A stretch of 64,000 nt of DNA, taken from positions 7,526-71,525 of IMG/VR virus record IMGVR_UViG_3300032074_000002; one strand, written 5' to 3'. This DNA comes from a virus. Taxonomy: Duplodnaviria > Caudoviricetes. The position numbers and the translations under genes were made by a program. The notes under the pieces are model-generated. The model saw nothing but the letters and a program-made list of their open reading frames with translations. It was not told the DNA's origin and ran no database searches. This document shows positions 1,287 to 63,109 of this stretch, in pieces (position 1 is the first letter of the stretch; every line of letters begins with the position of its first letter).

Positions 1287-1315
1287 ATCGGTACGCAACG
1301 GATTGGGGGACCGGC

Positions 1316-14528: not shown

Positions 14529-14965
14529 TCGAAGTCAAGCTGACAGTGTACGGCGAAGAGTACGCGATAGTGCGTATTGACGACATGCTTGACAGTCGTA
14601 GCACTGATCTGGCAAACTACTCCATCACGGCCGCGCTGCACGGACTCATCGAAGACAGTCTCTGGCGTCGGGCGTTGCCTGGCATCGAGAAGTACAAGGT
14701 CAACCCGTTGGGCCTCCTGAAGGCCGCGCTAGATCGACTGCCTGAGGAGGCGTTCAGTGGCGAAGCTTTTCCATCAAATCTGGCACGGCGACAGCAGGGA
14801 GCTGTGCAAGAAGTTCAAGCCGGGCCGGGTCAACTGCATCATCACGGACCCTCCGTTCGGGGTGGACAATCAGTCGAACATGGCGGTGACCAAGGAGGGC
14901 AAGGAGTACGCTCGGAAGATTGCGGGCGACGCGAGCCCAGAAGAGGCTTTGACGCTTTTTTCTGA
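14525..14965 (+). CDS. Hypothetical protein; 3' end overlaps the methyltransferase
   Basis: ATGA coupling at 14525; MIEVKLTVYGEE...LLKAALDRL. Confidence 0.6.
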   Translation: MIEVKLTVYGEEYAIVRIDDMLDSRSTDLANYSITAALHGLIEDSLWRRALPGIEKYKVNPLGLLKAALDRLPEEAFSGEAFPSNLARRQQGAVQEVQAGPGQLHHHGPSVRGGQSVEHGGDQGGQGVRSEDCGRREPRRGFDAFF

Positions 14966-15488
14966 GGTCATGGAGGCGCTGCTTCCGGCTACGGCTGACA
15001 ACTGTGACCTCTACATCGTCACCGCTCATCAGGTGCTGGAGCGGTGGCTGGATATGGCGAAGTCCAACGCGATGCTTCGTCATGGCTTCAAGTACAAGGC
15101 AATCCTGGTATGGGAGAAGGACGGCCCAGGCATGGGCGACCTTAACTCTTGGGGTCAGGGGCATGAGTTCATCCTATACCTCAAGAAGGGTAACCGTGTC
15201 AACTCGGACAAGAGGCGCTCGGGTGTCATTCATGTGCCACAGTTGCGGCCGAATCAGCTCATCCATCCCCACGAGAAGCCGACGGCGCTGTTGGAGATGT
15301 TTCTTCGTCAGTCCACTGATCCTGGCGACTTCGTTGTTGATCCCTTTGGAGGATCGGGCAGCCTGGTACGAGCAGCTCGCAACTGCCAACGCAGCGCGGT
15401 GGCTATCGAGTACGACGAGAAGAACTACAAGCTTGCTCTTGACAAGCTTGAGGGCGGCGAAGGGATGGACCTCTTCGGCGCTGCGTAG
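14757..15488 (+). CDS. N6A/N4C DNA methyltransferase (beta class)
   Basis: TDPPFG (motif IV) before HPHEKP and VDPFGGSGS (motif I); GAGGAGG RBS. Confidence 0.92.
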   Translation: MAKLFHQIWHGDSRELCKKFKPGRVNCIITDPPFGVDNQSNMAVTKEGKEYARKIAGDASPEEALTLFSEVMEALLPATADNCDLYIVTAHQVLERWLDMAKSNAMLRHGFKYKAILVWEKDGPGMGDLNSWGQGHEFILYLKKGNRVNSDKRRSGVIHVPQLRPNQLIHPHEKPTALLEMFLRQSTDPGDFVVDPFGGSGSLVRAARNCQRSAVAIEYDEKNYKLALDKLEGGEGMDLFGAA

Positions 15489-15501
15489 AGCGTAAGAACT
15501 T

Positions 15502-15540
15502 AGGCCCCCGTGGCTTTACACTGTAAAGTCACGGGGGCCT
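15502..15540 (+). terminator. 39-bp near-perfect inverted repeat (terminator or DNA dyad site)
   Basis: AGGCCCCCGTGGCTTTACA-C-TGTAAAGTCACGGGGGCCT. Confidence 0.6.
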
Positions 15541-15649
15541 TGCTCTGTGTAGGCCGATAGCGTATCGGCGCGTCGTCTACCATAGAGCCCCGGCCATGTG
15601 CCATTATTGCTCTAACGCCAATCCTGCACGCCCGACAATGGGGGAAAAG

Positions 15650-16042
15650 ATGCACACAGACGAAGATGGAGTGCGCGACATCGGGTCGCCCTTCAAGGTG
15701 TTCAGTCCTTTGGACATGAGCAGCCTGTATGACGTAGACTTCGCACCACAGCCGGTCAGTGTCCGCGACGTTCACCCGTCCGAGCTGGCGGCCAACCCAA
15801 AAGACGAGGAGTCCTCGTCTGCACAGGAGTCTGTCGAGGACTCTACGACGCCGGAGAAGTCGAACTCACCAGATCCCCTGGAGAACCCTGCGCCTGTGGA
15901 GAGGGAGCCAGTACCGACGGGCCTGGAGGATCTAGTTTCATCGAACGAAACGAGTCCTGGCGACGAGACGCCGCCTGCCGCGACGCCCCCATTACCCCCG
16001 GGCAAGACCCCTTCTTCCCGGAGCGCGGTCAAGTCAAACTAG
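15650..16042 (+). CDS. Acidic, disordered hypothetical protein (0-frame partner of WhiB)
   Basis: GGGGA RBS before ATG 15650 (alternative starts 15596, 15638); GAG-rich codons. Confidence 0.6.
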   Translation: MHTDEDGVRDIGSPFKVFSPLDMSSLYDVDFAPQPVSVRDVHPSELAANPKDEESSSAQESVEDSTTPEKSNSPDPLENPAPVEREPVPTGLEDLVSSNETSPGDETPPAATPPLPPGKTPSSRSAVKSN

Positions 16043-16170
16043 CCAACGAGGCTAAGATGAAGTACTGCTTCCCGTGTCCGGTGCGTCGCCAATGTGACGA
16101 GTACCGCCAGGAGACAGACAGTAGATACGGAATCTGGGGGGGTAACCAGTACAATGACTCTGGAGAGTAA
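15796..16170 (+). CDS. whiB: WhiB-family Fe-S transcription factor domain with no canonical start upstream of the domain
   Basis: WRRDAAC-x29-CFPC-PVRRQ-C...YGIWGG; frame open 15733-16170; only ATG (16057) lies inside the domain; missed by track. Confidence 0.85.
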   Translation, partial: PKRRGVLVCTGVCRGLYDAGEVELTRSPGEPCACGEGASTDGPGGSSFIERNESWRRDAACRDAPITPGQDPFFPERGQVKLANEAKMKYCFPCPVRRQCDEYRQETDSRYGIWGGNQYNDSGE

Positions 16171-16173
16171 CCG

Positions 16174-16296
16174 ATGAGCCCGCTTGTAGCGCTCATCATG
16201 CTGACCGTAGTCGAGGCAGCAGCAGTCGCAGTGTGGGCACGGTGTACCCTACGGAGGGTACTTGGCTTTGGCCCTGGACGGAGCTGGTTCGCATGA
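16174..16296 (+). CDS. 40-aa membrane peptide (not in track)
   Basis: GGAG RBS, hydrophobic N-terminus, ATGA overlap with nuclease. Confidence 0.55.
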   Translation: MSPLVALIMLTVVEAAAVAVWARCTLRRVLGFGPGRSWFA

Positions 16297-17480
16297 TTCC
16301 CACCAGCCTGAGCGCCACGGCACTGGACACGGCTACCAAGTGCCTTGCCCGCTACGCCGCCGAGAACATTAACAAGAATCGCACCGGCGGCTCCATGCCA
16401 GCCATGCTGGGCACGTCCTGCCATAATGCCCTAGAGCAGTACGTCAAGGACTGCTACATGGGCGAGGTGCGGACGACGCCTTCGCTGAACCTGCTGCTTG
16501 ACTACTACAAGATGCACTTCATGGTCGAGTTCGACACTGCCGACCCGCTGGGCGATCCTGCCTACGAGGACGGTGTGCAGATGCTGACCAACTGGTACGA
16601 GCGAAGTAACTTCGACGGCTTCGAAGTTGTCTCGGTCGAGGAGAAGACGCCGTACCAGCTCAACGTTCAGGACTCGGCTGGGACGAACTACACCATCCCC
16701 TTTAACTACATCTTCGACCGCCTGGACCGCCTGGACGAGACGACATACAGGGTCGTGGATTACAAGACCTGGCGCGGGCTCCTCCAGCCGGATGATCTGT
16801 TTGGCAAGATTCAGGCTCGCGTGTACGGTCTGATGTGTCAAATCCAGTATCCGCACGCCGAAAAGATCTGGGTCCAGTTCGATCAGCTCCGCGGTGATAC
16901 CGTAGGAGTTGTGTTCACCAAGGCTGACAATGCGAACACCTGGCGCTACATCAAGAAGTGGGCCAGGAAGATCTTGGATACCAAGATCGAGGATGCCGTC
17001 GAGACGATCAACCCTGATTGCAAGTGGTGCATCCGAAAGACGACCTGTACTACACTCAAGAAGAACATCGCGGCGGGCGGGATCGCTGGCCTGCCTGTGA
17101 TCGAGATGATCGACAGACGCGCCATGATCGACCAGCAGATGGAGGCGCTTAAGTGGGCCGCCGCCGAGCTGGAAGAGGCTCTGCTTAAGGCCGCCCAGAA
17201 CGAGGATGTTGAGCATCTGGAGAGCTATAATCACCGAGTCTACTGGACTCGCTCTTCACGGCGTCAGATCGAACGCATGGACATCCTCGAGAAGATCATC
17301 GGTCCACAGCTGATGGAGCGTGTAGGCAAGACCAGTGTCTCCATGACGACGCTCGACAAGCTTCTCAAGGGCAAGGAGTTGACCGCCGAACAGAAGTCTC
17401 AGATCAAAGGACTCGTTACCAATAAGTATGGCGAGCCGTCTCTCAAGACAAAGCCGCTCAGTAAGATTGACGAGAAATGA
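16293..17480 (+). CDS. PD-(D/E)XK RecB/Cas4-like exonuclease
   Basis: IFDRLD...VVDYKT...QARVY; N-terminal Cys plus CKWCIRKTTC cluster; helical C-terminus. Confidence 0.88.
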   Translation: MIPTSLSATALDTATKCLARYAAENINKNRTGGSMPAMLGTSCHNALEQYVKDCYMGEVRTTPSLNLLLDYYKMHFMVEFDTADPLGDPAYEDGVQMLTNWYERSNFDGFEVVSVEEKTPYQLNVQDSAGTNYTIPFNYIFDRLDRLDETTYRVVDYKTWRGLLQPDDLFGKIQARVYGLMCQIQYPHAEKIWVQFDQLRGDTVGVVFTKADNANTWRYIKKWARKILDTKIEDAVETINPDCKWCIRKTTCTTLKKNIAAGGIAGLPVIEMIDRRAMIDQQMEALKWAAAELEEALLKAAQNEDVEHLESYNHRVYWTRSSRRQIERMDILEKIIGPQLMERVGKTSVSMTTLDKLLKGKELTAEQKSQIKGLVTNKYGEPSLKTKPLSKIDEK

Positions 17481-35081: not shown

Positions 35082-35597
35082 TTACTCGTTGTCGTCGTCG
35101 TCGTCGTCGCTGCTGCTGGCCGCGCTGTGGGAGCCGCGCTTGCGAGTGCTGGCCGGGACCGGCGGCAGCTGTGGGGTGTCGCCCGACTCGGTGTTCTCGT
35201 CGGAGTCCTCGACGGCCGAGTCCTCGGCGGGAACGGACGCCGTGCCAGCCTCGCGCGGACCAGCGGTTCCGAGCGAGGTGGACGGGTGCGGGGTGTGACT
35301 CGGGTGCTGGAGGACGAGAACGCGCTCACTGGCCTCCTGCTCCGCGTCAACGGTCGGACCTTCCTCAGCCTGAAAGGGCTGACGAAAGACACCCGAGTAC
35401 GTCCGATACTCCGGCGAGACGCCGACGAAGCCCGACGTGTCCTGGTCCTCGACGGCGTAGGGAGCAGGTGCGTCCTTCTCCTTCACGTCCTCCGGAACCT
35501 CGGCCTCGTTGCCGTCGGCGTTGGCCTCAGCCAGCGAGTCGAGGTACAGCTCGTGACGGGAAGGCACCCGCTCCGGAGCCTGATTCTCTTCGGCCAT
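35082..35597 (-). CDS. Very acidic hypothetical protein after the capsid gene
   Basis: GAGGA RBS; D/E-rich; poly-D C-terminus. Confidence 0.75.
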   Translation of the reverse strand: MAEENQAPERVPSRHELYLDSLAEANADGNEAEVPEDVKEKDAPAPYAVEDQDTSGFVGVSPEYRTYSGVFRQPFQAEEGPTVDAEQEASERVLVLQHPSHTPHPSTSLGTAGPREAGTASVPAEDSAVEDSDENTESGDTPQLPPVPASTRKRGSHSAASSSDDDDDDNE

Positions 35598-35687
35598 GGT
35601 TTCCTCTCTCAGGTGGACCTTCCTGTGGTCAGTCGGACGGCCCGGTCGTACCCTCCCCGACAGAGGTTCGACCGGGCCGTCCTCAGA

Positions 35688-36923
35688 TCACAGGACGGTG
35701 AGCGTGTACGTGTGATCCATGTACGGGAAGACCGGGAAAGCCTTGACACCAGAACCGCGGACGGTCTGCCACGGGTCCTTCGTCTCGACCTCCCACTCGT
35801 AGTACCCGGACTGCCAGTTGCCCTCGGGGTGCGGCGAGGTGAGGGTCTTAGCGAAGCCGATCTGCGTCTCGTCCACGACACCGAGCGTCGCACCCGAGGG
35901 CTGCGGCGCGGTGATGCCGAGATCCGCGTCGGTCGGAACGAAGAAGATCTTGTTGTCCGACGTGAAGCGGTTGTTCTGCATCGTCTGGCTTCCGACGGCG
36001 CGCGTCCGGTAGATCGAGTCGTACTCGATGAACTTGACGCCCGTCACGTCTTCCACGATCTGCTGTGCCCGCTGTGGACCCCAGCCCGGGAGCAGGTAGT
36101 TCGGGTCGATCGGGGTGGAAGGCGTGCCTGCCGTGACGCCAGCCATGGTCGTGAAGTGGCTGGACTTCCACAGCGTCATCAGGACTCGACGGCTGGTGAT
36201 CGCACGACTGAACCGGAAGCCGTAGGTGTCGTACATCCACTGGTTCAGTGCGATGATGTCGCCGATGGGGTCGTGAGTCGTCCCGTTGTACAGACCAGAG
36301 GCCGGAGCCTGCTCGTGCTGGTTGGCGGGGCGACCGAAGTCCACGGTGAACTTGATCTTGCCGTCATTGTAGACGATCTTACCCGTCTCGATCGCCGTCA
36401 TGATCAGCCACTCCATTCGGTTGTCGAGCATGGTGCGACGCCTCGCGTCGTCACGCACGACCTTGGACTGGAGGTCAGCAGCCGGGGACCAGTCGTCGTT
36501 GATGTAGCCCGACAAGCCCGACAGCTGCAGCGTCTGACCCTGGAGGGCCTGACGGATGATCAGGTCGTCCCGGTATCGGGTCACGTCGGACGCGGAGTAC
36601 TCGTCCTTCAGAGCCCAGTCGATCACCGAGGCGCGACCCGTGCCGCTGACCAGCACGTCCTTCTGACTCAGCTCCGACTCCGCGTCTTCCGCGCGGGCCG
36701 GGGCCAGACCCATAGACAGGCCGTCCTTGATGTAGTCGAACAGCACGTCGTCGCTGGCGACGGACAGGAACGGCGCGATCTGGGTCAGACCGATGTGCCC
36801 TTCCGGGTACGGCCGCTCCCGGATGACGCCGAGGGCGACCTCCTTGCGGATCAGGCGGTCGAGAGGGAGCTGGCTCGTGGCGAAGTTGCTCCGCTGGCCA
36901 CCACCCGCGAGGGGCATCGACAT
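35688..36923 (-). CDS. Major capsid protein (lambda gpE-like family)
   Basis: 411 aa, highest GC3; follows protease and decoration genes. Confidence 0.88.
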   Translation of the reverse strand: MSMPLAGGGQRSNFATSQLPLDRLIRKEVALGVIRERPYPEGHIGLTQIAPFLSVASDDVLFDYIKDGLSMGLAPARAEDAESELSQKDVLVSGTGRASVIDWALKDEYSASDVTRYRDDLIIRQALQGQTLQLSGLSGYINDDWSPAADLQSKVVRDDARRRTMLDNRMEWLIMTAIETGKIVYNDGKIKFTVDFGRPANQHEQAPASGLYNGTTHDPIGDIIALNQWMYDTYGFRFSRAITSRRVLMTLWKSSHFTTMAGVTAGTPSTPIDPNYLLPGWGPQRAQQIVEDVTGVKFIEYDSIYRTRAVGSQTMQNNRFTSDNKIFFVPTDADLGITAPQPSGATLGVVDETQIGFAKTLTSPHPEGNWQSGYYEWEVETKDPWQTVRGSGVKAFPVFPYMDHTYTLTVL

Positions 36924-39039: not shown

Positions 39040-40693
39040 CAGTCTCAGCAACCTTGGCGAAGGTGTCACAGAACTGCTTGGACGACTCCCACTTGACCTC
39101 CGCCACGTCGCTCAGGAAGGCGGTCATCTTGGAGTAGTAGGCATCAGCCTTCAGCTGGCCAACCTCGTTTACCATGGCTCGCCGGTAACCGAGGTCAATC
39201 TTGGACGGATCAAACTCACCACGCTTGAATGCAGCCGTCACCTGCTGACCGACGCGGTTGACGATAGCCGTAGCCGTAGAGGACGTGCCGTCACCCGCGC
39301 CGTCGGGCTGCTGGTTGTCCAGCGGGTTCGCGCCCGCCGGGTCCTGGCCAGCGTTCGGGTCCGTGCCCGGATCGGTGCCGGGAGTCTCCTTGAGCTGACG
39401 GATCTCGGTCAGCGTGAGCCCAGCGATGTCGCCGAGCTGATCGAGGTCAACCTTAGCCTTGCCGCTACTGATCAAGGCCTGAACGATCGTATTGATCAGA
39501 TCGCTGGACTCGTTACCCATCTTACGGAACTTAATGCGAGCCCTGGGAGCCTTGGGTGAGAAGTTGTAGTCCACCATCCGACTGAGCACGAAGTTGTCGA
39601 TGTACTGCTTTCGGTCGCCGTTCAGGCTGTTGAGCATCCACAGGTAGACCTGCATGTGCCCCTGGCCGAGGTTGTAGCTACCAACATCGGCAGTACGGAG
39701 CAGCAGGATTGGCGTGAACAGACCGATCGACATTTCTTCATCGAGTCGCGTCATGTAACGCTCGAAGTCAGCACCACGCATCTGCGACTCGAGATATTCG
39801 ATCTCGTAGTCATATGCCTTGCCAGATCCGCGCATCCCCTCGTCCTGGGGGTTGCGGTCGTTGGGCAGAACAACCGTGCTGCGGCTACGGATGTTCATAA
39901 GCATCTGCAGCATGTAGTCGCGCGAGTTCTGTGTCGTGCCGTCAGCCAGCAGGATGTCCTCGTCCATGGGAGCGCGACCGATTGGAGTCGGCTCGCCAAA
40001 GCGCTCGTAGTACCTGTTAGCGAACAGGTGCAACAGCATGGAGAAGAACCAGGATGTAAAGGCAGGCTTGAGCAGCTTAGTTCCGTAGTAGTCGCCGTGC
40101 GTCATCAGCATCGGGTACCACAGAGTCGCCTCGGCGGGCACTGGCCACGGTGAGCCGAACTGCTTGAGGCCGTCGTACACCTTGATCTTCGGAGGAACCT
40201 TACCTCCGGGCGGTGCGTAACCGTCAACGTACTTCCAGTTGACGAAGCACTCTTCCGGGATCAGGTCCTTGACCTTCGTAAGCTGAACACTCTTGCCCTG
40301 AATGTCATTGTCCCACTGGAGAACGTTCGGCGCAAAGCCTGCCCAGTGAGCTGTGTTCATGGATCGAGCCAGCGGCGTCCACATCTCGGCGAGGTTCTCC
40401 TCGCAGTGAGCGGCGATTTTCTTGTCGTCGCACTCGATGTGCCATTCGGCCTGGTGGAGCAGGAAGCCCAGCACCGCGAGCGAGGCGTGGATCTGGTAGT
40501 GGCTCGTCATCTTTCGGTAGTCCGAAAGCGTGAGGTTGTTCAGGTCAAAGCCGATGGTCCCACCGCCGGGCAGCTGCAGGAAGGTCAGGTCACGGCCCGC
40601 CCAGTTGCCGAACGCCTCGCCCAGCTTTGGCGGCGCGGCCTTGCGGTACTGCTGTGAACTGATCGGCCGACCGTACTGGTCGAGAAGGGACAC
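39032..40693 (-). CDS. Portal protein (DUF935 / Mu gp29-like)
   Basis: GTG 40693 with GAGG RBS; YGTKLLKPAFTSWFF...YERFGEP..IGR; follows TerL. Confidence 0.9.
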   Translation of the reverse strand: MSLLDQYGRPISSQQYRKAAPPKLGEAFGNWAGRDLTFLQLPGGGTIGFDLNNLTLSDYRKMTSHYQIHASLAVLGFLLHQAEWHIECDDKKIAAHCEENLAEMWTPLARSMNTAHWAGFAPNVLQWDNDIQGKSVQLTKVKDLIPEECFVNWKYVDGYAPPGGKVPPKIKVYDGLKQFGSPWPVPAEATLWYPMLMTHGDYYGTKLLKPAFTSWFFSMLLHLFANRYYERFGEPTPIGRAPMDEDILLADGTTQNSRDYMLQMLMNIRSRSTVVLPNDRNPQDEGMRGSGKAYDYEIEYLESQMRGADFERYMTRLDEEMSIGLFTPILLLRTADVGSYNLGQGHMQVYLWMLNSLNGDRKQYIDNFVLSRMVDYNFSPKAPRARIKFRKMGNESSDLINTIVQALISSGKAKVDLDQLGDIAGLTLTEIRQLKETPGTDPGTDPNAGQDPAGANPLDNQQPDGAGDGTSSTATAIVNRVGQQVTAAFKRGEFDPSKIDLGYRRAMVNEVGQLKADAYYSKMTAFLSDVAEVKWESSKQFCDTFAKVAETVA

Positions 40694-40695
40694 TT

Positions 40696-42594
40696 CTACC
40701 TCGTTTCGCGGGGCTGCAATCTCCCTGGGAGACTCAATCCACCGAGCATGGAACCTGAGGGGGGAAAGCTTGGAAGAGCCGTACCGCCGTAGGGACCTGC
40801 GTGGAAAGGCAAACCTGGGATTTCGAAGCCTGTCGGTTCCTGCACCTTTGGGCGAGGCATGTCCCACTCGGGGTCCTGCGACGACCGGGGTGAGCGTAGC
40901 CCACGGCGGAAGGATCGGTCGCCCATGAGTGTCGTCACAACCCCGGCCATGGCGTCGGCCAGATCCTTGGACCCCTTGGTTGGGTGGTCGATCTTCTTGC
41001 CGGTATCCTCTAGCTGTGTCAGCTCTCGGATTGCGACCTGTTCTTCGTCTGCGTCCCCGATGTTTCGGTAAGTGGTGTAGGGCGGGAACTCGAGTCTCTC
41101 GTCGATGATCGCATCACGAAGGTCCTCGTATGGAAGCGTCGATCGGTCAACGCTGAGATTATCAGCGAAGAAGCGCTTCTTGCGAAGTTGCTGAATCGAG
41201 TCTGTGCTCTGGAATCCGTCATAAGTCACCCTGATAACCTTAAACTTGCGCTCATCCCGAAGGTCGTAGATTACCCTTCGGATGTCTGAGAGCTGGATCT
41301 CATATCCGGGCCGCGCCTTAACTCGATAGAGCATGTCGATGACGATGTAAGGCTTGTCCTCGCCGTCGATCTCAACGATGCCTTCGACATGACCCATCGC
41401 AAAGCCGAGCGCATCCCCATCAGGACTGGTAGCGAGGTCAATGTGGACACATCGCTTGCGGGGGTCATTGTCGGCACGGAACCAGCTTGCAATCTGGGGG
41501 CGGGTGACGGACTTGTCTATAGGCGAGTCTGACCCGTGTCGTTCGATCCACCGAGCACGGCAGCTCTCAATCTTTTCCACTGATCCGATGAAGGGGTCGC
41601 CAATCGCAGGTGGAATGCCAGCGAGATCACGTAGGGCCTTGATGGGGTCATTGATGAAACTCTGGCGATAAACAGATGGCACTTCAAAAACGTGCTCGAC
41701 ACTATTCGCAATGAGATCTCGACCCACTTCGTCTGGGACGATTTCCCTCCGCCGCGAGTCATAGAAAAACGAATCACGAGTACCATCCGATTTCAAGTAG
41801 CGCGGGTAAGACCAACCGCGCGACTCCCAGATGGTCATGCGAGTCGTGTGCGCCTTCGGGTCTTTACTGAATGAGTCGAAGGTCCGGGCAGCGAAGCCCT
41901 CGGCCTTCTTCATCTGGCCAATGACGACGATCAGTCCCCGGTCATCGTACCTGGATTCGATACGAGCGTTAATCGTGTCGTAGCCGATCTGAGCGTAGTC
42001 CTTATCTTTGGTTACCTTGTGCGAGTCTGCCTCGTCGATAATTCCGCCGAGGATGTTGTAACCTTCGAAGGTCGTCTCGGCACTGTCGCCAGGGAGGATC
42101 CAGATTTCCTTGGGAAACCGGATGGACTTGGTAAACTTCGGATCGTATGGGTAGTTGTTAACGAACCAGTCCGAGTGTTCGATCCTGGCCTTGACATCAT
42201 CGAAGATGACCTGACGAGCCTGATCTTCCGACGTGCTCATCATCATAAAGGCGATACGCGAGCCAGGCAGCAGTCCCCAGAACTTCTGAGGATCTTTGAG
42301 ACACAGAACCCAATGACACATGTACGGCAGGATAATGCTGGCAATCGTAGTCTTGCCAATACCGATTGCGCCTGTAATCATTGCGCGCAGGACAAGCGCG
42401 ATGTTAGTGCTATTAACATCGTCGCCGAAGATTTCCAGCAGTGCATCCTTGATTCCGGGCCGCACCATGTCTGCGATATCGAGATAGCCCTCGCCGATGA
42501 ACTCCATGATCGTTGCTGGACGCTCTTCGAACTCAGGATTCTGAATCAGCCAGCGCGCCTCGCGGTCTGCCTTGGCAAAGTCAAAGCTGGTCAT
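40696..42594 (-). CDS. terL: Terminase large subunit
   Basis: GAIGIGKT (Walker A), GGIIDEAD (Walker B), HIDLA, DGFQS, IDHPTKGSKDLADA nuclease motifs. Confidence 0.95.
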   Translation of the reverse strand: MTSFDFAKADREARWLIQNPEFEERPATIMEFIGEGYLDIADMVRPGIKDALLEIFGDDVNSTNIALVLRAMITGAIGIGKTTIASIILPYMCHWVLCLKDPQKFWGLLPGSRIAFMMMSTSEDQARQVIFDDVKARIEHSDWFVNNYPYDPKFTKSIRFPKEIWILPGDSAETTFEGYNILGGIIDEADSHKVTKDKDYAQIGYDTINARIESRYDDRGLIVVIGQMKKAEGFAARTFDSFSKDPKAHTTRMTIWESRGWSYPRYLKSDGTRDSFFYDSRRREIVPDEVGRDLIANSVEHVFEVPSVYRQSFINDPIKALRDLAGIPPAIGDPFIGSVEKIESCRARWIERHGSDSPIDKSVTRPQIASWFRADNDPRKRCVHIDLATSPDGDALGFAMGHVEGIVEIDGEDKPYIVIDMLYRVKARPGYEIQLSDIRRVIYDLRDERKFKVIRVTYDGFQSTDSIQQLRKKRFFADNLSVDRSTLPYEDLRDAIIDERLEFPPYTTYRNIGDADEEQVAIRELTQLEDTGKKIDHPTKGSKDLADAMAGVVTTLMGDRSFRRGLRSPRSSQDPEWDMPRPKVQEPTGFEIPGLPFHAGPYGGTALPSFPPSGSMLGGLSLPGRLQPRETR

Positions 42595-44746: not shown

Positions 44747-45568
44747 GTGTCAACTTCTGTACTGGTCAATCTTATGGCCAAGCACTTCATCGCACGACCT
44801 GACGTGAAGGCAGTTCAGCACGCTGACGGCTCTTATGCCCCGACCCGTGGCGCGGGGTGGAAGCGAGCAGACATCGAAGCACACCTCGCGGGGGAGGCAA
44901 CGTATGGACACTATCTGCTCAACACAGACGACACCACCAAGCTCATCTGCTTCGACGTGGATCTACGCCACACACGGAAAGAAAATGGTGCTGATGTGCC
45001 TGACGGCTGGCTGCCCAGTGCTGGCCTGGACGGAATCGAACCTTATGACGGGTTTACCAGTGCCAACCCTCGCGCCGTGTGGGCGGATCGTAGAGATGTT
45101 CGTCGCAACTACCTAAAGTACTCGATGCGGCTGATCGCGCATGTGTTCGCGGAGCGCATCCAAGCAGAACTGGACGTGCCTGTAGCCTGTACCTATTCGG
45201 GCAGCAAGGGTATCCATGTGTATGGGCTCACTGGTAAGATCAGCGCCAGCGATGCTCGTGACGGTGCCATGATTGTCATTGACTCGATTGGTCAGTTCGA
45301 GATCGAGCGCGGCGATTCACTCTTCAAGTACTCGGGCAACGATACGGAAAATCCGTTCGTCAACTTCTCGATCGAGGTCTACCCCAAACAGTCCAGCTTG
45401 GCTGGCAAGGACTTGGGAAACCTGCTTCGGCTCCCCCTGGGCAGGAACAACAAGAGCAAGGACCCGACGTTCTTCATAGACATGACCGCACCATTGGCCG
45501 AGATGAGGCCGATGGACCCGGAGTGGGCTCTCACTACTGCTTCTCCGTGGAAGCAGCCGGGCGAGTGA
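44747..45568 (+). CDS. Archaeo-eukaryotic primase (AEP, TOTE-type) domain
   Basis: CFDVD, YSGSKGIHVY, EVYPKQ...GNLLRLPLG. Confidence 0.85.
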   Translation: MSTSVLVNLMAKHFIARPDVKAVQHADGSYAPTRGAGWKRADIEAHLAGEATYGHYLLNTDDTTKLICFDVDLRHTRKENGADVPDGWLPSAGLDGIEPYDGFTSANPRAVWADRRDVRRNYLKYSMRLIAHVFAERIQAELDVPVACTYSGSKGIHVYGLTGKISASDARDGAMIVIDSIGQFEIERGDSLFKYSGNDTENPFVNFSIEVYPKQSSLAGKDLGNLLRLPLGRNNKSKDPTFFIDMTAPLAEMRPMDPEWALTTASPWKQPGE

Positions 45569-45744
45569 GCGGACAGTACCTCAAGCGCAAGCACTTCTGT
45601 TGCCCCCCGCCCGTGCGCGGACATGGCGATCTGTGGCAGTGTGAATGCGACAAGATCTATCGCTCTAGTTCGCCAGGTAATCCGAATTATGACAGATGGA
45701 TGCGCGTCTACTGGCTAGGACGCCTGTTGCGGGGGATCAAGTGA
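45565..45744 (+). CDS. Small Cys-rich protein
   Basis: HFCCP...WQCECDK; GTGA overlaps at both ends. Confidence 0.65.
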   Translation: MSGQYLKRKHFCCPPPVRGHGDLWQCECDKIYRSSSPGNPNYDRWMRVYWLGRLLRGIK

Positions 45745-47759
45745 CCGAGGAGACTACCCTTCAGCGGAAGGTCCGCGAAAGACGCGAACGGTTAGCAGCC
45801 GAAGCGGCGACAGCTTCAGGCTCAACCACCGCTCGAGGGATGGATGTCAACCCCGAGTTTTCTGATCTGGTCCCCGACGCCGACTCGGCATACGAGCGGT
45901 CTGATGCCGACCTGACGATCGACAGACTGATCGAGAACCTGGATGTTGTCGATGCGTACCGTCGGTGGATTCCGCACAAGACGATCCCGCCATTTAGTGC
46001 CGCCAAGCGCGAAGGCATCATGGTTCGCTGCCCTCGCCCGGATCACACTGACAATAACCCTTCTGCGTGGATCAACCGCGACAAGGGTACATGGTACTGT
46101 GGTGGCTGCGGTGAGGGCGGAGATGCGCTCGATCTGGCCAGTTTCTACCACGGGATCGGCGACTACAAGCACGGAAAATCTTTCGGACAACTTCGTGAAC
46201 GAGTCGCAGCCGATCTTGGCTATCGCATCATCACGGCACCTGGCGTCAAGAACCCGCCAGTCGTGGCGGTTGCTCCACCCCCCGCTGCACCGGAGCCCGT
46301 GGCCGAGGCGCCCGCTCCCCCAGCCCCTCCCCTGCCGCCCGCCCCAACACCTGTCCCGGTGGCGGTGGATGTAGATACTCGCCCTTATCCAGAGCCAGAC
46401 TCAACAACATGGGGTCATGTCAATCCAGAGGCTGAGCCTCTCGCAACAGTCACGAGCATCTATGGCGATGATGTCGAGAATGATGATATCATCCTGCCGA
46501 CGATTGACTGGCGGCCGCTCGTCACACCAGGAACTTTTCTCGATAAGTACATGCAACAAACGATCATCGACGACGTTCCCGAGGAATACAACTTCTGGAA
46601 CGGCCTCGCTGCGATCAGTATGGCAATCGGGCGTGATGTCGCCCTGGCCGACCGTAAGCCGGTGCTGGGCAATCTGTTCATGTGCATCGTCGGCAAGTCA
46701 GGTGCAGGGAAATCCCGAGCGATCAGTCATCTCACCGATCTGACTGGCATGGCACTACCCTATGATCCATCTGATCCGATGGACCGAGGCGTCAAGACGA
46801 TTTCGACGCCCGGGTCTGGTGAACACCTGATTCACCAGTTCTCCAAGCCGATTTATGACACCTCGGGTGCAAAGCCTGTTATCATCGGTTATGCGCCAGT
46901 ACGTGGCATTGTGGACTTTGACGAATTGTCTGCACTCGTGTCGCGCACCAATCGTCAGGGCAGTACACTCAAGACGAATCTCATGCAGTTCTTCGATGGT
47001 CGCAAGGAGGTTACCAGCGGCTCAATGGCTCATGGCGACCTGCGAGCAAGTATGCCATACGCATGTGTTGCTGCCGGTGTTCAGCCCAAGGCGCTACCCG
47101 ATCTAGTTAGTGACAGCGATGCTGTAAGTGGATTCTTGAACCGCTGGCTGTTTGTGACTGGTACACCAAAGAAGCGCATGGCAATCGGTGGAGTCGTCGT
47201 AGACATCCGTCCGTGTGCGCCTCCGCTTCAGGAGATTCACGAGTGGGCGAACGGACACGGCATGATGCTGTGGTCGGACGAGGCTGCCGAAGAATTCACG
47301 CGCCTGTTCGACGAGCGCATCGACCCACTACAGCAGAGTGATGACACGGACCTGTTCACTCGCATTGACCTGCTCTGCAAGAAACTGTGCCTACTACTCT
47401 CGGCCAATGAGATGCTCGACGAAGTATCTCGCACTATTGTTCTCAAGGTCGAGGCAATCTTCGACTATCTCGTAGCGATCTGGAACGTCCAAGCAAAGAG
47501 CCTTGGAAACACAGACGAGAAGCTGTGCGAGGAGCGGATCATCGACCTGCTCAAGCGGAAGGGTCCAGAACAGAAAGACGGCTCGCTGCAGATCGGTTAC
47601 ATCGTCTCGATCGTCGGCAAAAAGTATTCACGCAAGATGATCGAGGAGTGTCTGCGTCGGCTGACTAATCTTCATGTCATCGACTCCTACGTTCCCCCCG
47701 CTCCCAAGATTGGCCGCCCCCCGAAGCCCCGCTATCGCCTGGTGAGTGAAAATGACTGA
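45741..47759 (+). CDS. CHC2-like Zn finger plus P-loop helicase (DUF3987-like) replication protein
   Basis: CPRPDH..PSAWIN...WYCGGCGEGGD; GKSGAGKS; DFDEL; NRWLFV. Confidence 0.85.
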   Translation: MTEETTLQRKVRERRERLAAEAATASGSTTARGMDVNPEFSDLVPDADSAYERSDADLTIDRLIENLDVVDAYRRWIPHKTIPPFSAAKREGIMVRCPRPDHTDNNPSAWINRDKGTWYCGGCGEGGDALDLASFYHGIGDYKHGKSFGQLRERVAADLGYRIITAPGVKNPPVVAVAPPPAAPEPVAEAPAPPAPPLPPAPTPVPVAVDVDTRPYPEPDSTTWGHVNPEAEPLATVTSIYGDDVENDDIILPTIDWRPLVTPGTFLDKYMQQTIIDDVPEEYNFWNGLAAISMAIGRDVALADRKPVLGNLFMCIVGKSGAGKSRAISHLTDLTGMALPYDPSDPMDRGVKTISTPGSGEHLIHQFSKPIYDTSGAKPVIIGYAPVRGIVDFDELSALVSRTNRQGSTLKTNLMQFFDGRKEVTSGSMAHGDLRASMPYACVAAGVQPKALPDLVSDSDAVSGFLNRWLFVTGTPKKRMAIGGVVVDIRPCAPPLQEIHEWANGHGMMLWSDEAAEEFTRLFDERIDPLQQSDDTDLFTRIDLLCKKLCLLLSANEMLDEVSRTIVLKVEAIFDYLVAIWNVQAKSLGNTDEKLCEERIIDLLKRKGPEQKDGSLQIGYIVSIVGKKYSRKMIEECLRRLTNLHVIDSYVPPAPKIGRPPKPRYRLVSEND

Positions 47760-54813: not shown

Positions 54814-57165
54814 TCAGGCGAAGCCGAGGGCCTGGAACTTGGCGTAGACCTGATTGGCCACGATCGTGTAGCCGGGCGCGAGCAGGTGGACGCCGTCGTA
54901 GCGCAGCGACGTGGGGACGGTGTCGTTGGCGATGTCGGCGGTGTCCTGCGTGGTCGGGGTGATCCCGGCGTCGGCGAGGCCGTGGTCGATCAGGTACCGG
55001 CGGACGTCGAAGAACCGGTCGCCGTAGATCGCGGCGAGCTGCTGGTTCAGAAAGACGATCTGGTTGTAGCCGACGCCGCCCAGGTACTCGGTGGTGAAAC
55101 CGCCGTTGTGGACGCCGATGATCACGTACTTGCCGGTGGTGCAGACGGCGACCATCGCGGCGATGTCGGCCAGCACCGTCGTCGGGTCGGCGTAGTTGTT
55201 GTGCCCGGCCCAGATCAGGAAGCTGGAGCCGGGCAGCGCCCCGCCCAGGTCGAAGGTGACCGGCACCGACCCGGCGGCGGGGACCGCGCTCCCGGCCTCG
55301 TGGCGGGTGAAGGTGCCGCCGACGTGGAACGTGCCATGCACTCCATTCAGCGAGCCGGAGAGGTCACCGCCCTGCGCCGACGGGACGCCCGTGGACGTGG
55401 TGACCGACACGACCCCGGAGGCGGGGATCGACCCGCCGGTCACGGTCGCCGTGGCGGCCACCGCACCGGCCCGGTTGGCGATCTGGGTGGAAATCTCGCC
55501 GCCGACGCCGAGGTTGCGGATCGTCTTGCCGATCAGCCCGCCGAGCACGCCCGGGTAGTTGGTGCCGCTACCGCCGGTGCCCGCGGTCAGCGAGTCGCCG
55601 AGCGCCGCCCACTGGCCGGTGTCGGTGATCGACGCGAAAGTCGTGGTCACGACGACGATGCCGGTGCCGCCGTCGCCACCCTTGCCGGAGTTGTTCCCGT
55701 TGAGCGCCGCGCCACCTCCTCCACCACCGCCGCCGGGCTTGCCGCCCTGGGCGCCGGCCTGCGCCGCGCCGGTGATCGACGCCGCACCGCCGCCACCGCC
55801 CGGGGCGGGCAGGGTGACCGACGGGGCATCGAACGTCGAGGGGGCCGCGCCGCCCACGATCCCGGCCTGCCCGGCCTGGTTCGAGGTGAACCCGGTAGCG
55901 CCCGCTCCGCCGCCGTTGGAGGCCGCGTCGGCGGAGGTGATGCCACCACCGGCGGCGCCGCCGGTGCCCATGTACTGCCCGTTGGTCTGCGACCCGGTGC
56001 CGGACGAGCCGCCGCCCGCGCCGCCGGTGGTGGAGGCCGCGCCGCCGCCGAGGGACTGGCCGATGCCGCCGACGAAGTTGTTGCCCGCGCCGCCCGCACC
56101 TGCGGCGTTCGTGCCGCCCGCCCCTGCTGCGCCACCGGCGACCGTCCGCACGTACAGGCCGAAGGAGGAGGTCCCGCCCGCCGCACCGGCGTTACCGTTG
56201 GTGTCGTTCGCGGTCACCGCCGCACCCCCGGCGCCACCGGCGCCGACGGTCACGGCCACCGTGTCCGTCAGGTCCGAGCCACGCAGCACGACGCGCGACA
56301 TGGCGCCGGACGCGCCGCCGCCGCCGCCGCAGCGCACCGTCCCGGCGGCGCCGCGACGACCGGAGCCGCCACCGCCACCGCCGGAGATGGCCACCACCTC
56401 GACCGACACCGCGCCCGCGGGCCGGGTCCAGGTGCCGGAGGTGGTGAACACCTGAATGTCGGCCGGTCGGGGGTAGTGAGCGTCATAGGCCGCCCCTAGT
56501 GTCACTCGGGCGGTACTACTACCATCCTGCAAATCCCCCACTGTGACGACATCACCAGTTGCGATACCGTCAGTGAAAGTCGCTGTTCCGTCGCCGTTGT
56601 CGGTGATCTGAGTCGTCGGCGTCCAGCCCATGTCGTAATCAGCTGCAGTCAGCTTGACAGCGACTTCACCAGGATTACCCCCAGCAGGCATCCCAATCCC
56701 AGGAGGACCAGGATCACCAGGCGGCCCAGGTAGTCCTCGCTGGATGATAATTCCGGGGCTAACCGCGACCGGCGTCAGTTCGGCCAAGTCGTAAATGAGC
56801 CCCGATTCACCCGAGAAGTCAAAGCTAGCCTTGGTGTACTTGCCGACCTTGAAGACGGCCTGCCACGTCCAAGCTTGGGTCGTGAGCCCCGAAGAGTTTG
56901 GGCAAATCAGCGTAACCCAGGAGTCACCCTGAGCGTTTCGCAGGATCCCATCGGCTTCGACAGTTGCGGTAACACTGTCCAAGAAGAGGCTAGCGTTGCC
57001 GTCAGTCGACAGAAGAGTGTTCTCAGTTACTCGGGGCGTAAAGGTAACAGTCCCGCCCACAGGGAGAATGTCCGGCAGATCGTCGATGTCGTCGGTCGCA
57101 TCTGCGACGCCCTGAAGAGTCTTCCACGTCACCCTGAAGGTGTCGAGCCCCTGGGGCAGTGCCAT
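54814..57165 (-). CDS. Tail fibre/receptor-binding protein: baseplate-anchoring N-terminus, collagen triplets, Gly-rich domain, C-terminal SGNH/GDSL hydrolase
   Basis: GLPGPPGDPGPPG; poly-G/A segment; ALGDSLT, NLGVGGE, AGHNN, DGVHL. Confidence 0.85.
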   Translation of the reverse strand: MALPQGLDTFRVTWKTLQGVADATDDIDDLPDILPVGGTVTFTPRVTENTLLSTDGNASLFLDSVTATVEADGILRNAQGDSWVTLICPNSSGLTTQAWTWQAVFKVGKYTKASFDFSGESGLIYDLAELTPVAVSPGIIIQRGLPGPPGDPGPPGIGMPAGGNPGEVAVKLTAADYDMGWTPTTQITDNGDGTATFTDGIATGDVVTVGDLQDGSSTARVTLGAAYDAHYPRPADIQVFTTSGTWTRPAGAVSVEVVAISGGGGGGSGRRGAAGTVRCGGGGGASGAMSRVVLRGSDLTDTVAVTVGAGGAGGAAVTANDTNGNAGAAGGTSSFGLYVRTVAGGAAGAGGTNAAGAGGAGNNFVGGIGQSLGGGAASTTGGAGGGSSGTGSQTNGQYMGTGGAAGGGITSADAASNGGGAGATGFTSNQAGQAGIVGGAAPSTFDAPSVTLPAPGGGGGAASITGAAQAGAQGGKPGGGGGGGGAALNGNNSGKGGDGGTGIVVVTTTFASITDTGQWAALGDSLTAGTGGSGTNYPGVLGGLIGKTIRNLGVGGEISTQIANRAGAVAATATVTGGSIPASGVVSVTTSTGVPSAQGGDLSGSLNGVHGTFHVGGTFTRHEAGSAVPAAGSVPVTFDLGGALPGSSFLIWAGHNNYADPTTVLADIAAMVAVCTTGKYVIIGVHNGGFTTEYLGGVGYNQIVFLNQQLAAIYGDRFFDVRRYLIDHGLADAGITPTTQDTADIANDTVPTSLRYDGVHLLAPGYTIVANQVYAKFQALGFA

Positions 57166-57312
57166 AACTTTGGGTCCAATCTGACTCGCGTGCGCGTGCG
57201 CTCAGGTTACTCGACCCGTCCAGCATTGGCATATGGCACAGATTAACAGCCCCAACCTGGCAATCAGCTGTGGGTGATACAGGTGAGAATCCATTTCATG
57301 ATCCACATGATC

Positions 57313-57880
57313 TTGGTCGAAGAATTGGTCAAAGAATTATGACATTGGTCGAAAAATTATTGGGGTTTCTAAACTACGTTCCTTTCAGGCTGTCCTCATC
57401 CGGCCAAAACCAGTCCTCAGGGGGTAACTTTTTGGATGATCTACAAGGGATACAGTCTGTCGGCACGCCTTGTGGTGGTTTCACCACGACTTACCTGCAT
57501 CGTCAGTGCCACTGGTACCGGGAACCGGCTATCAAGATCAAATAGTTTCTCGACCAGCCGGTCGAGAAACTCCCGATTTGGTCGAGAAACTACGGGGGCC
57601 GGTCGGGGAACGTTTCGCAACCTAGTTTCGCAACCATTTCTCGACCTCCTAAAAGCGCAGGTCAACACGGCGATTCGGGGGTTTTTTGATTGTTCGACCG
57701 AGCGTCGCTTACACACACACACACACGGGGTCGCTCACACACATCCGGGGCGTTCTTACACGGGGTCCGGCCGTTGGGGGGGATGCCGGTCGAACTAGTC
57801 TGTTTAGTCGAACAATTCGCTGACCTGCGGTTATGTTAAACGATCATGGTCGATAAACCCGTCCATCAGGTCAAAGAATA
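57313..57880. repeat. Iteron-like GGTCRA[A/G]AA repeat cluster (~13 copies, both orientations)
   Basis: TTGGTCGAAGAATT 57313, TTGGTCAAAGAATT 57325, TTGGTCGAAAAATT 57345, TAGTTTCTCGACCA 57543, GGTCGAGAAACT 57560, TTGGTCGAGAAACTA 57578, TTTCTCGACC 57637 and others. Confidence 0.75.
57711..57726. repeat. (AC)8 microsatellite
   Basis: Direct reading; followed by ACACGGGG-type repeats. Confidence 0.9.
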
Positions 57881-57901
57881 GTGAAAGAATCCTCACGTAG
57901 G

Positions 57902-57950
57902 TAAATAAATTAAAAAAATCACTCTATATATATATATAAGAGAGCTTATA
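57902..57950. other. AT-rich tract with a (TA)n run, candidate unwinding element
   Basis: TAAATAAATTAAAAAAATCACTCTATATATATATATAAGAGAG in a GC-rich genome. Confidence 0.6.
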
Positions 57951-58194
57951 CTCAAGCTCTCTGAGAGTCTGCGAGTGTTCTTGTACAGAGTCTCTCTAGT
58001 TCTTGGGAGACTAGACTCTATGACAGGGGGCTATGGATGGGGAAGATAGCTTTGCTGACCCTAGAAGGAATAAAGGGCGACAAAAAGTTTTGTGTGCGTC
58101 GCTTGTGGTCAAAGGGCGCGCGGCGTACCGGGGGTCTGGATTTTCTGACCCGGGGGCATACGCCCCGGGGGTATGCCGTTTGCATGGGGCATGC

Positions 58195-58975
58195 AAGAAC
58201 ATTCGTTCTACATGCAATTGTGTGGCGCATGCATGTCGGCCGCTATCGCACCGTTAGAACGTTTGTTCTAACGCCCGATAGGGCACGCTATCGGCACGAC
58301 ACGGCCCATTAGAACGTTTGTTCTAACGGGCATAGCTATGCGCCATGCCGCATCGCCATGCGCGGGTACCGGGCCGTTAGAACACGCGTTCTAACGGTGT
58401 ATGGTGCACCCAATTGCACGCCGCATGCATCCCGCTAGGTGTCCCATAGAACGGCCGTTCTAACGTAGGTCTACCTAGATACATGGGCCGCGCCATGACA
58501 TGTCGCCACAACCGCGCACACGCCCCGCATGGGGCATTCCTAGCTAGGTCGCACTACCCCGTTAGAACGATCGTTCTAACGCAACGTAACCGAACAAGTC
58601 ACAATCAGTAGGGGCCACAATGTCATGGCACAAATCCACAACCGACACGGGTCACGTTTGGCACGTTCTAACGGGTGCGACACGCCAATTAGACGGTACG
58701 TTCTACCCATGGCAAACGGGACGACGGAAACGGGACACACCGCACGCGGTGTAGAACGAATCGTCTAACGTGTGCTATGATCTACCCATGGACGCGCCGC
58801 ACGACTAGCGCGGGCCATACGATGTTCTAACACCTACACATGGGGTACGTTTGCGCGCCGCTAGTTCGGCACGTAGAACGCGCGTTCTAATAGCTAGCGC
58901 CATATATCAACACGCGGCGCATAGGTCCGGGCGGATACAATGCCGGACGGCAATCCATTAGAACAACCGTTCTAA
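58195..58975. repeat. Array of TAGAAC-N4-GTTCTA palindromes (7 perfect, 3 near-perfect, 2 half sites)
   Basis: Starts at 58195, 58255, 58310, 58378, 58447, 58563, (58655), 58690, 58752, (58814), 58874, 58959. Confidence 0.92.
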
Positions 58976-58985
58976 ACACGCCGGG

Positions 58986-59015
58986 TTGACACGCAAACGG
59001 ACCACATGATAGGGT
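58986..59015 (+). promoter_or_regulatory. Promoter TTGACA-N18-TAGGGT just after the last palindrome
   Basis: Direct reading. Confidence 0.55.
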
Positions 59016-59304
59016 GGTAACACACCGAAAGAACGGATCGGACGACGTAGCGGGTAGTCTATCTACCGGGCCGCGCGAGTCCTAGTGATGACATAACGGG
59101 CCATACCCATGGCCGGGCCGTGTGGTCCGTCACTAAAAGTCCGGTAGGATTCTATCGCGCCTAACATGGCCGGAATGGGCGACACTACGGGGTGGAGTCG
59201 GGGATACACGTAAGTCCCGATGCATACCCGCACGGACCCAGACCATGCTAGACTCGGTAGTGCCCGACCGGGCAATCACCCCACGAATGGGAGGCATGTA
59301 AGTC

Positions 59305-59511
59305 ATGGGCGACCTAGTTGACATCACGTCCGTTAGTCCGGGCACGATGATTCACTACGAGTACGATGCGGGTGCGGGTAAAGTCACCATAGTCGGCATC
59401 GTCGGCCCATTCATGGGCATGGCAGAATTGGGTAACCAGGGCGTCAAGATCCACACCGGATCAGGGCCGCGCTACGTGTCCCGACTCGCCCGTGTCACCG
59501 TCCTAGACTAG
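59305..59511 (+). CDS. Small early protein
   Basis: Preceded by leader module and GGGAGG. Confidence 0.7.
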   Translation: MGDLVDITSVSPGTMIHYEYDAGAGKVTIVGIVGPFMGMAELGNQGVKIHTGSGPRYVSRLARVTVLD

Positions 59512-62119: not shown

Positions 62120-63109
62120 ATGGCACGTAATAGGCAGAGCACCGACGTTCTCGATCGCGAGGACGAGAACACCGTCACCACCGAGGCCCCGGCCGAGAAC
62201 ACCGTCACCACCGAGGCCCCGGCCGAGGGTGAGGCCCCGGCTGAGGAGGAGGGTGAGCGCGACAGCTCGGGCGACACCGAGCACACGGACGGCGAGGTCC
62301 AGGTGAGCCTGGAGCCCTTCGAGCAGGCCGCGCAGGCTGCCGTCGCCCAGCGGGACACCAATACGGGCGAGCTGCCCGATGGTGCCCTGGAGCCTGTCCT
62401 CGAGCAGTACCGGGCGCTGGGTTCCACCAAGGACCGCAACCGGGCGAAGAACTACCTCAAGGACCAGATGAAGGTCGCCATGGAGGCGCTCGACCTGAGC
62501 CTGGCCCGGTCGTTCTACACCCTGTCCGAGTCCATGACCACCTCGGTGGCCAGCAAGGTGGGTACCGAGCGCAAGCCCGCTGACCCGCTGGCTGTCTGGC
62601 GTCACAACCTGCTCACCAGCCTGATCGCCTACGGCGAGCTAGCCGGGTCGGGCAAGCCCGAGGACGCCAGCGTCGAGGAGGTGCAGCAGATCGCCTCCGC
62701 GACGGAGACGATCGAGGAGATCAACTCCTACCGCACCTGGCTCGACGACGAGAACGAGGACAAGGGCGAGGCTCCGAAGGTTCGCCCGGAGGTTGTCCAC
62801 GCCTTCCGCATCGTCCGAGGCAACAAGCGTCGGGGAGTCGGCACGGGTGGCGGCGACCGCTCGCCGCACGACGGCCCGCGTCGTGACCTCGGCAAGCACA
62901 TCGCCGAGGCGTTCGCCAGTGTGGACTCGGGCACGTTCCTGAGCGTGGCCGACATCCGCAAGTTCTCCTCCGAGGAGTACGGCGACGAGCAGCCGTCGGC
63001 CGGTGCGATCTCGGCCCGCCTGTTCCCGGCCAAGGGTTCCTGCACCATCGAGGGAATCACGCCCGGAACCGGCGGCGAGAAGGGCACCAAGGGCGCCTAT
63101 AAGGACTGA
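62120..63109 (+). CDS. Acidic 329-aa early protein with C-terminal winged-HTH-like domain
   Basis: AAGGAGAGCACC-ATG; very high GC3; PSAGAISARLF motif. Confidence 0.85.
   Translation: MARNRQSTDVLDREDENTVTTEAPAENTVTTEAPAEGEAPAEEEGERDSSGDTEHTDGEVQVSLEPFEQAAQAAVAQRDTNTGELPDGALEPVLEQYRALGSTKDRNRAKNYLKDQMKVAMEALDLSLARSFYTLSESMTTSVASKVGTERKPADPLAVWRHNLLTSLIAYGELAGSGKPEDASVEEVQQIASATETIEEINSYRTWLDDENEDKGEAPKVRPEVVHAFRIVRGNKRRGVGTGGGDRSPHDGPRRDLGKHIAEAFASVDSGTFLSVADIRKFSSEEYGDEQPSAGAISARLFPAKGSCTIEGITPGTGGEKGTKGAYKD
62165..62224 (+). repeat. Perfect 30-bp tandem duplication (ENTVTTEAPA x2)
   Basis: GAGAACACCGTCACCACCGAGGCCCCGGCC twice. Confidence 0.95.

Follow-up and report, generated by a model that had tools for sequence, protein, structure and literature searches.

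A dozen LexA-operator-like dyads in the gene-free control region of a putative actinophage

The 64,000-nucleotide stretch of DNA analyzed here (the window) comprises bases 7526-71525 of the IMG/VR virus record IMGVR_UViG_3300032074_000002, which is 71,525 bases long and estimated to be 93% complete. Between its leftward late genes and its rightward early genes lies a gene-free region with a tight cluster of palindromes of the form TAGAAC-N4-GTTCTA, which resemble the SOS boxes bound by the LexA repressor, and the question raised by this locus is which protein reads them. As judged from sequence comparisons, the array is predicted to be a real and conserved DNA element of the LexA-operator class that binds a protein. 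The best reading is that the dyads are LexA-type operators read by the LexA protein of the host, which appears to be the single most likely reader; this reading is tentative, a little short of an even chance.

The array (Table 1) consists of ten full dyads and two copies that retain only the right arm, all within 58195-58974, with start-to-start spacings of 60, 55, 68, 69, 116, 92, 35, 62, 62, 60 and 85 bp; the dozen palindromes and the spacings listed in an earlier note on this DNA were reproduced exactly. When up to two mismatches to TAGAACNNNNGTTCTA were allowed, the window contained ten matches, all of them in the array; shuffled windows gave 1.1 on average and at most 4, and none of 100 shuffles reached ten. 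No further copy (two or fewer mismatches) lies outside the array in the whole 71,525-base record. Seven of the full dyads are perfect, one has a single mismatch and two have two. The arms are separated by four bp exclusively, no other spacing being present in the phage, and in about half of the copies the palindrome is extended to CGTTAGAAC..GTTCTAACG. The dyad centers include GGCC, GATC, GCGC and GTAC, all of which the earlier note had listed, and they follow the pattern R-N-N-Y (R in 10/10 and Y in 10/10 full dyads), so the symmetry of the site is 7+2+7. Mismatches are concentrated in the left arm (14, versus 2 in the right), and the copies show no clear helical phase (resultant 0.49 at 10.5 bp).

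Table 1. Array copies and neighboring features, in window coordinates. Scores are by a matrix of natural LexA boxes (see text).
Feature	Position	Strand	Sequence or match	LexA matrix (bits)	Remarks
Copy 1	58195..58210		AAGAAC-ATTC-GTTCTA, 1 mismatch	12.7	
Copy 2	58255..58270		perfect	17.1	
Copy 3	58310..58325		perfect	17.1	
Copy 4	58378..58393		perfect	16.7	
Copy 5	58447..58462		perfect	15.4	
Copy 6	58563..58578		perfect	14.1	
Copy 7	58655..58670		right arm only, GTTCTAAC from 58665	-16.8	left arm lost
Copy 8	58690..58705		TAGACG-GTAC-GTTCTA, 2 left-arm mismatches	2.7	
Copy 9	58752..58767		TAGAAC-GAAT-CGTCTA, 2 mismatches		covers -36 to -21 of candidate promoter P1
Copy 10	58814..58829		right arm only, GTTCTAAC from 58824		
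Copy 11	58874..58889		perfect	15.2	
Copy 12	58959..58974		perfect	16.3	ends 11 bp before -35 of candidate promoter P2
Non-coding gap	57166..59304				2.1 kb, between minus-strand late and plus-strand early blocks
Tail-fiber gene	54814-57165	-			first gene of late block
First early open reading frame	59305..59511	+			68 aa, no family match
Candidate early promoter P1	58773..58781	+	extended -10 TGCTATGAT		consensus match only
Candidate main early promoter P2	58986..59015	+	TTGACA, 18 bp, TGA-TAGGGT (TGATAGGGT)		consensus match only
Candidate promoter P3	59246..59254	+	TGCTAGACT		consensus match only; 51 bp before first early reading frame
Conserved non-coding element, ~90 bp	58083..58170		AAAGTTTTGTGTG..GGGGG..GATTTTC..CCGGGGG		just left of array
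A+T-rich tract with (TA)n run	57896..57945		up to 82% A+T		~250 bp left of copy 1

The array agrees with the LexA operator of Actinomycetota in its 16-bp dyad and in the GAAC-N4-GTTC core, which is intact in eight copies, but the C-G of that operator at positions 2-3/14-15 is not present, the good copies all having A and T at positions 2 and 15, respectively. For the LexA matrix, 60 boxes were taken from the regions upstream of lexA in 25 genomes of the likely host order, and 25 of the 26 genomes of that order with a lexA match have one to three such boxes. Natural boxes score a median of 20.7 bits (10th percentile 16.4) by this matrix and the eight good phage dyads score 12.7-17.1 bits; only two positions elsewhere in the 71.5-kb genome reach 12 bits. 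Because lexA promoters use TCGAAC, by this measure the phage sites rank as weak-to-moderate, non-consensus LexA boxes. Occurrences of the consensus SOS palindrome TCGAACACATGTTCGA fall overwhelmingly in Actinomycetota genomes, and in four named Mycobacteriales genomes TCGAAC-N4-GTTCGA is present 3-15 times (control pattern 0-1) and TAGAAC-N4-GTTCTA 0-1 times. Fifteen exact occurrences of the phage dyad, all single, were found in about 500 Actinomycetota genomes (six matches were at the level of the phylum, one of them in genome G437, on which no conclusion rests), and 4/15 lie at SOS-type genes (bacterial loci L160, L163, L161 and L203): 11 bp upstream of a dnaE2-like gene (PHP and DNA_pol3_alpha domains), upstream of a DUF222-HNH (13E12-type) gene, upstream of a radical-SAM gene and at a recA/recX junction. 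These copies suggest that LexA tolerates A/T in place of C/G at positions 2 and 15.

Two proteins, the terminase and an early protein of 329 aa (62120-63109), link the phage to Rhodococcus phage ReqiDocB7 (host R. equi), to the Gordonia cluster CS phages, among them Monty and GTE7 (host G. terrae), and to Tsukamurella phages. With the 329-aa protein as marker, an alignment-based search collected relatives at 12 IMG/VR and 7 metagenome loci; a single-protein marker search of IMG/VR found nothing. The closest relatives lie on contigs of 19 kb (P0004) and 57 kb (P0005). Relative L025 (marker 62% identical) carries 11 dyads of the same type at 1907-2798, of which ten have the exact right arm GTTCTA; its left arms are degenerate (14 mismatches versus 1 in the right arms), its flanks differ from those in the window, and duplicated units are visible. 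Relative L011 (marker 40% identical), which encodes a WhiB protein, has at least 14 dyads of the form TCGnAC-N4-GTnCGA at 300-1940; these differ from the window and L025 motif at positions 2 and 15, are canonical actinobacterial SOS boxes, score 10-24.8 bits and vary among themselves as natural boxes do. All three arrays are preceded by the conserved ~90-bp element (197-285 in L011 and 1333-1420 in L025; mean identity of the alignment 68%) and so lie at orthologous positions. LexA-matrix matches of 13 bits or more are present in the corresponding control region of 8 of 14 relatives, including GTE7 (two) and ReqiDocB7 (three), with none downstream of the marker gene and 0.13 per 20 kb in shuffles, and mixed sites (TAGAAC..GTACGA and TCGAAC..GTTCTA) also occur among the relatives. 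Among 50,697 phage records, megablast and blastn searches with the window and L011 arrays detected no cultured phage that has such an array. The resemblance to a LexA box that the earlier note had drawn from the core thus extends to the outer T, the inner R..Y, the SOS boxes of L011, the matches in 8/14 relatives and the copies at SOS genes; its question whether the host box is of TAGAAC type is answered in the negative for the likely host order and phylum; lexA promoters of that order carry TCGAAC.

The same dyad is not confined to this phage group. Pattern scans of IMG/VR for TAGAAC-N4-GTTCTA and TCGAAC-N4-GTTCGA found the former in at least three unrelated phage lineages, where it forms single clusters of 7-19 copies; an exact IMG/VR scan with the extended 20-bp palindrome gave single chance matches only. 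The 38.5-kb genome G497 has eight copies at 35122-35704, the related genomes G498 (40330-42508) and G499 (14820-16423) have seven and 11 copies beside a class II ribonucleotide reductase gene, and the 150-kb genome G500 has 19. TCGAAC-N4-GTTCGA arrays are present in L285 (7079-7333), L360 (359-769; boxes partly abutting with a 15-bp period) and others. An all-against-all BLASTP comparison of this phage with G497-G499 found no DNA-binding protein in common, and WhiB is absent from G497-G500. Because unrelated phages with the same dyad share no detected binder, a widespread host factor is favored, though not proven; small regulators diverge beyond BLAST detection. Two further loci may be mentioned here: L272, from an unrelated uncultured phage, has an array of TAGAAC-N4-GTTCTA or TCGAAC-N4-GTTCGA at 41-3207, and L308 (38% G+C) has 18 dispersed boxes of CGAACATATGTTCG type.

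Several observations weigh against host LexA as the reader. TAGAAC-N4-GTTCTA is present at most once per genome in 201 genomes of the likely host order and in 301 of the phylum, and so the phage dyad is not the consensus operator of any sampled host. Position 2 of the half-sites upstream of lexA is C in 111/120 and A in 6/120, and TAGAAC makes up only 4/120 of these half-sites and is never found on both halves, yet the full dyads of the window, like those of L025, carry the right arm GTTCTA. The loss of left arms, never right arms, is unexplained by a symmetric LexA dimer, and the uniform TA may stem from the spread of the motif by local duplication; duplicated units are seen in L025. A single copy in 12 lies over a promoter core, and most are upstream of the candidate promoters. 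Finally, several relatives have unrelated motifs in the same region, which is the pattern expected of phage-specific binders: CTAGTACCAC, repeated in one orientation in Monty (L010 442-1516) and GTE7 (L013 5347-6903), CGACTAGTCG in L012 (6475-7408), CTAGCGCTAG in L014 (3074-5429), CTAGGCCTAG in L016 (5640-6919) and GTTGC-N5-GCAAC in L017. The first four of these motifs all contain CTAG and are present in 6-11 copies per relative; no description of the CTAG-containing repeats was found in the literature searched.

These different motifs at one place are among the grounds for the main alternative, that a dimeric DNA-binding protein of the phage itself reads the dyads, perhaps a small winged-helix or helix-turn-helix (HTH) early protein and possibly one with an unrecognized LexA-like DNA-binding domain, for which gp6 of phage GIL01 is a precedent (PMC6182141). 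Such a protein would shut off or time early transcription, and the likeness to SOS boxes would reflect ancestry or mimicry. The uniform TA at positions 2/15 in the window and L025 arrays and the abutment of a half-site on the extended -10 of four L025 promoters would suit a phage binder, and there is room for one among the many early open reading frames without a family match. However, no candidate co-varies with the array motif, identical dyad arrays occur in unrelated phages without a detectable common binder, and no credible match to LexA or its DNA-binding domain (TIGR00498, PF01726) was found in the genome, although small diverged proteins could escape this search. We regard a phage-encoded reader as possible but somewhat unlikely.

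Two early proteins were considered as binders and rejected. The recognition helix of the 329-aa protein is almost unchanged across phages with different arrays, and that of a 219-aa HTH-like protein (4622-5281) likewise barely changes. Both are winged-helix proteins encoded by core genes of the whole phage group, and they have in common a PSxGAIxA recognition-helix motif; the 329-aa protein also has a long acidic disordered N-terminus. Its structural model has a C-terminal winged helix that resembles generic winged helices (Z about 6), and a Foldseek search of this model against the PDB found nothing below E 0.1. L011 and L018 have a second, shorter winged-helix paralog; in L011 its gene is the first to follow the array. 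The first sizeable early protein of the window phage (198 aa) has no family, PDB or Atlas match and is absent from the other array-bearing phages.

The relatives also bear on the lifestyle of the phage. They are about 75 kb long, and cluster CS genomes have about 59% G+C and direct terminal repeats, which are also present in two Rhodococcus relatives (PMC5559632, PMC4982279, PMC13313380). They are reported to be likely lytic and without a repressor, and their tyrosine recombinase is not considered an integrase (PMC5559632, PMC4982279, PMC13313380). The phage is probably a lytic siphovirus of a Mycobacteriales-like host. The repressor-free lysogeny switch that the earlier note had proposed finds no support, given likely lytic relatives, a recombinase not considered an integrase, the terminal repeats and the single copy in 12 on a promoter core. 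A tyrosine recombinase has been reported for all relatives, and in the window an Xer-like one with a SAM-like N-terminal and a catalytic domain is encoded among the early genes (3296-4129); weak homologs (25% identity) are present in the unrelated array-bearing genomes G498 and G499. The dyads were also considered as sites for a tyrosine recombinase, an idea rejected on their spacing: Xer/Cre-type sites need a spacer longer than 4 bp.

Another explanation is that the dyads are replication-origin iterons or genome-end/packaging sites that act with the A+T-rich tract and the ~90-bp element near a presumed terminal repeat. In phage λ, the origin has dyad iterons beside an A+T-rich segment; here too several dyad-symmetric sites lie beside such a segment, a likeness of layout only, but no adjacent initiator gene was recognized and the motif is common to unrelated phages. 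The order (TA)n tract, conserved GC hairpin element, dyads recurs in the window, L011, L017 and ReqiDocB7 (the tract lying at 30-90 in L011, 2184 in L017 and L015 1575 in ReqiDocB7), and the G497 array lies about 0.8 kb upstream of terL, both of which would fit an origin or packaging role. So would the syntenic 1.66-kb non-coding region of Monty, which is the physical right end of its genome and lies upstream of the same leftward early genes; this end carries a 191-bp terminal repeat (PMC5559632). The record containing the window is called linear, and no end repeats were found in it. The AEP primase and primase-helicase genes are 11-14 kb away (44774-47759), the only DnaA-box-like words are two weak ones outside the array, and initiators and small terminases are lineage-specific, yet unrelated lineages carry the identical dyad. 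On balance we consider an origin or packaging role, third in likelihood among the readings, improbable.

The ~90-bp element, which the window phage, L011 and L025 share although their arrays differ, probably has a conserved factor as its reader and may be related to the genome terminus or to packaging. On the far side of the A+T-rich tract, at 57315-57884, is a family of repeats of GGTCRARRAA with six plus-strand and two minus-strand copies, and a terminator-like hairpin with a 12-bp stem (57544-57571) lies among them. This repeat region could mark the other side of a genome terminus, origin or packaging site.

The half-site itself points to one other host protein, since TAGAAC/GTTCTA is exactly the operator half-site of the TetR-type regulator KstR of Mycobacteriales, whose motif is TnnAACnnGTTnnA (PMC1995591). 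TAGAAC-N2-GTTCTA is present 5-12 times per genome in four Mycobacteriales genomes (1 for a control pattern), and one of the genomic N4 copies mentioned above lies upstream of a TetR gene, so a reading by KstR or a relative might be entertained. However, the KstR operator has the identical 6-bp half-sites separated by 2 bp, and all phage copies have a 4-bp spacer, with no N2 copy anywhere in the phage; a change of 2 bp in spacing normally abolishes binding by TetR-type dimers. A role for this family is very improbable.

The palindromes could in principle act in RNA, as processing sites, terminators or stabilizers in an early leader transcript, because stems of 6-9 bp with 4-nt loops are possible. 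Their stem sequence, however, is conserved rather than covarying, two copies are without one arm, most copies have no convincing promoter upstream, no T-runs follow the stems and no Rfam family was matched at threshold; an RNA role is hardly to be expected. The suggestion in the earlier note of a centromere-like array gained no support, as no ParA/ParB family was found among 50 predicted proteins scanned against Pfam.

If host LexA is the reader, its dimers would occupy the eight good dyads with an affinity below that of canonical boxes, as positions 2 and 15 are A/T and not C/G. Bound LexA would occlude P1 and line the 0.8 kb before P2, the candidate main early promoter, and so couple early transcription to the SOS state of the host. 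As the genome multiplies, some ten sites per copy would draw LexA off the host operators; the LexA sponge suggested in the earlier note is a possible reading. A stronger form of the idea, in which the array is a LexA sink whose ten or so moderate-affinity boxes per genome copy titrate LexA and turn on the SOS regulon without DNA damage, is rather unlikely. The same degree of doubt applies to the joint proposal that, with titration, RecA, Ruv, error-prone polymerases and resident prophages would be switched on, and that the first early promoter would be SOS-sensitive at phage entry.

The gene-free region was delimited by a crude gene call, which predicted no gene between 57166 and 59304. To its left the late block runs leftward from the tail-fiber gene through lysis, terminase and structural genes. 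To its right the early block runs rightward from 59305 across the contig end to about window position 17900; it encodes an AAA_5 ATPase, a CobT-like VWA protein, an HNH nuclease, the Xer-like tyrosine recombinase, an SNF2 helicase, an exonuclease, a clamp-like protein, RusA, an N6/N4 methylase, WhiB and a PD-(D/E)XK nuclease. A WhiB query gave no bacterial relative. The promoters are candidates from consensus matching; a simple promoter/terminator consensus scan gave nothing above shuffles. The position of copy 9 over the -35 region of P1 (it spans -36 to -21 of TGCTATGAT) and the 11 bp between the last copy and the TTGACA at 58986 agree with what the earlier note had reported. The P2 region (58969-59036) has a weak likeness (76% over 68 bp, E 0.08) to the non-coding far right genome ends of several Mycobacterium phages, for example Luchador. 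In L025, four candidate early promoters (2067, 2633, 2704 and 2768) have the composite form TAGAAC-nTGn-TAGACT, in which the -10 hexamer occupies the place of the right half-site.

Phages known to be under LexA control are mainly temperate and have one box, or a few, on a promoter. The present phage, whose cultured relatives are reported to be likely lytic, has a dozen LexA-type boxes in a control region free of genes, and no description of terminal arrays of LexA-type boxes was found in the literature searched. If host LexA does read the array, then lytic actinophages would sense the SOS response, or manipulate it, by a route not found in that literature. This would matter for phage use against Gordonia, Rhodococcus and mycobacteria and for the induction of prophages when infections are mixed. 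With a phage protein as the reader, there should be an unrecognized regulator with LexA-like specificity and possible cross-talk with host SOS boxes. Should the array be a LexA sink, the GAAC-N4-GTTC arrays across unrelated lineages would represent a general phage strategy. GTE7 and ReqiDocB7, with their two or three boxes each, are cultured.

Among the closest known systems is the actinobacterial SOS box TCGAAC-N4-GTTCGA, with which the phage sites share the 16-bp dyad, the GAAC-N4-GTTC core, the outer T and the inner R..Y; they differ from it in having A/T rather than C/G at 2/15 and in being present as a dozen copies in 0.8 kb, mostly off-promoter. One half is better kept than the other in the phage sites and also in the Streptomyces venezuelae LexA-box consensus, tCGAAC-N4-GNNCGa (PMC9380542). 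Another is tectivirus GIL01, which uses host LexA at dinBoxes on its P1 promoter together with the cofactor gp7 and the LexA homolog gp6 (PMC4551915, PMC6182141). Both phages are without a CI-type repressor and have LexA-type boxes at early promoters, but GIL01 is temperate, has few boxes, which lie on the promoter itself, and encodes gp6 and gp7. In the present case the relatives are reported to be likely lytic, most of the numerous boxes lie upstream of the promoters, and a search for LexA-domain proteins found none. Other actinophages carry short phage-specific repeats that are conserved within a cluster and in some clusters lie near the right genome end, such as the stoperators of cluster A and the 17- to 18-bp inverted repeats of clusters O and EG (PMC7302621, PMC5559632). 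Those repeats are dispersed in short gaps directly upstream of genes; the copies described here all lie in one gene-free region, and their motif matches a class of host operator.

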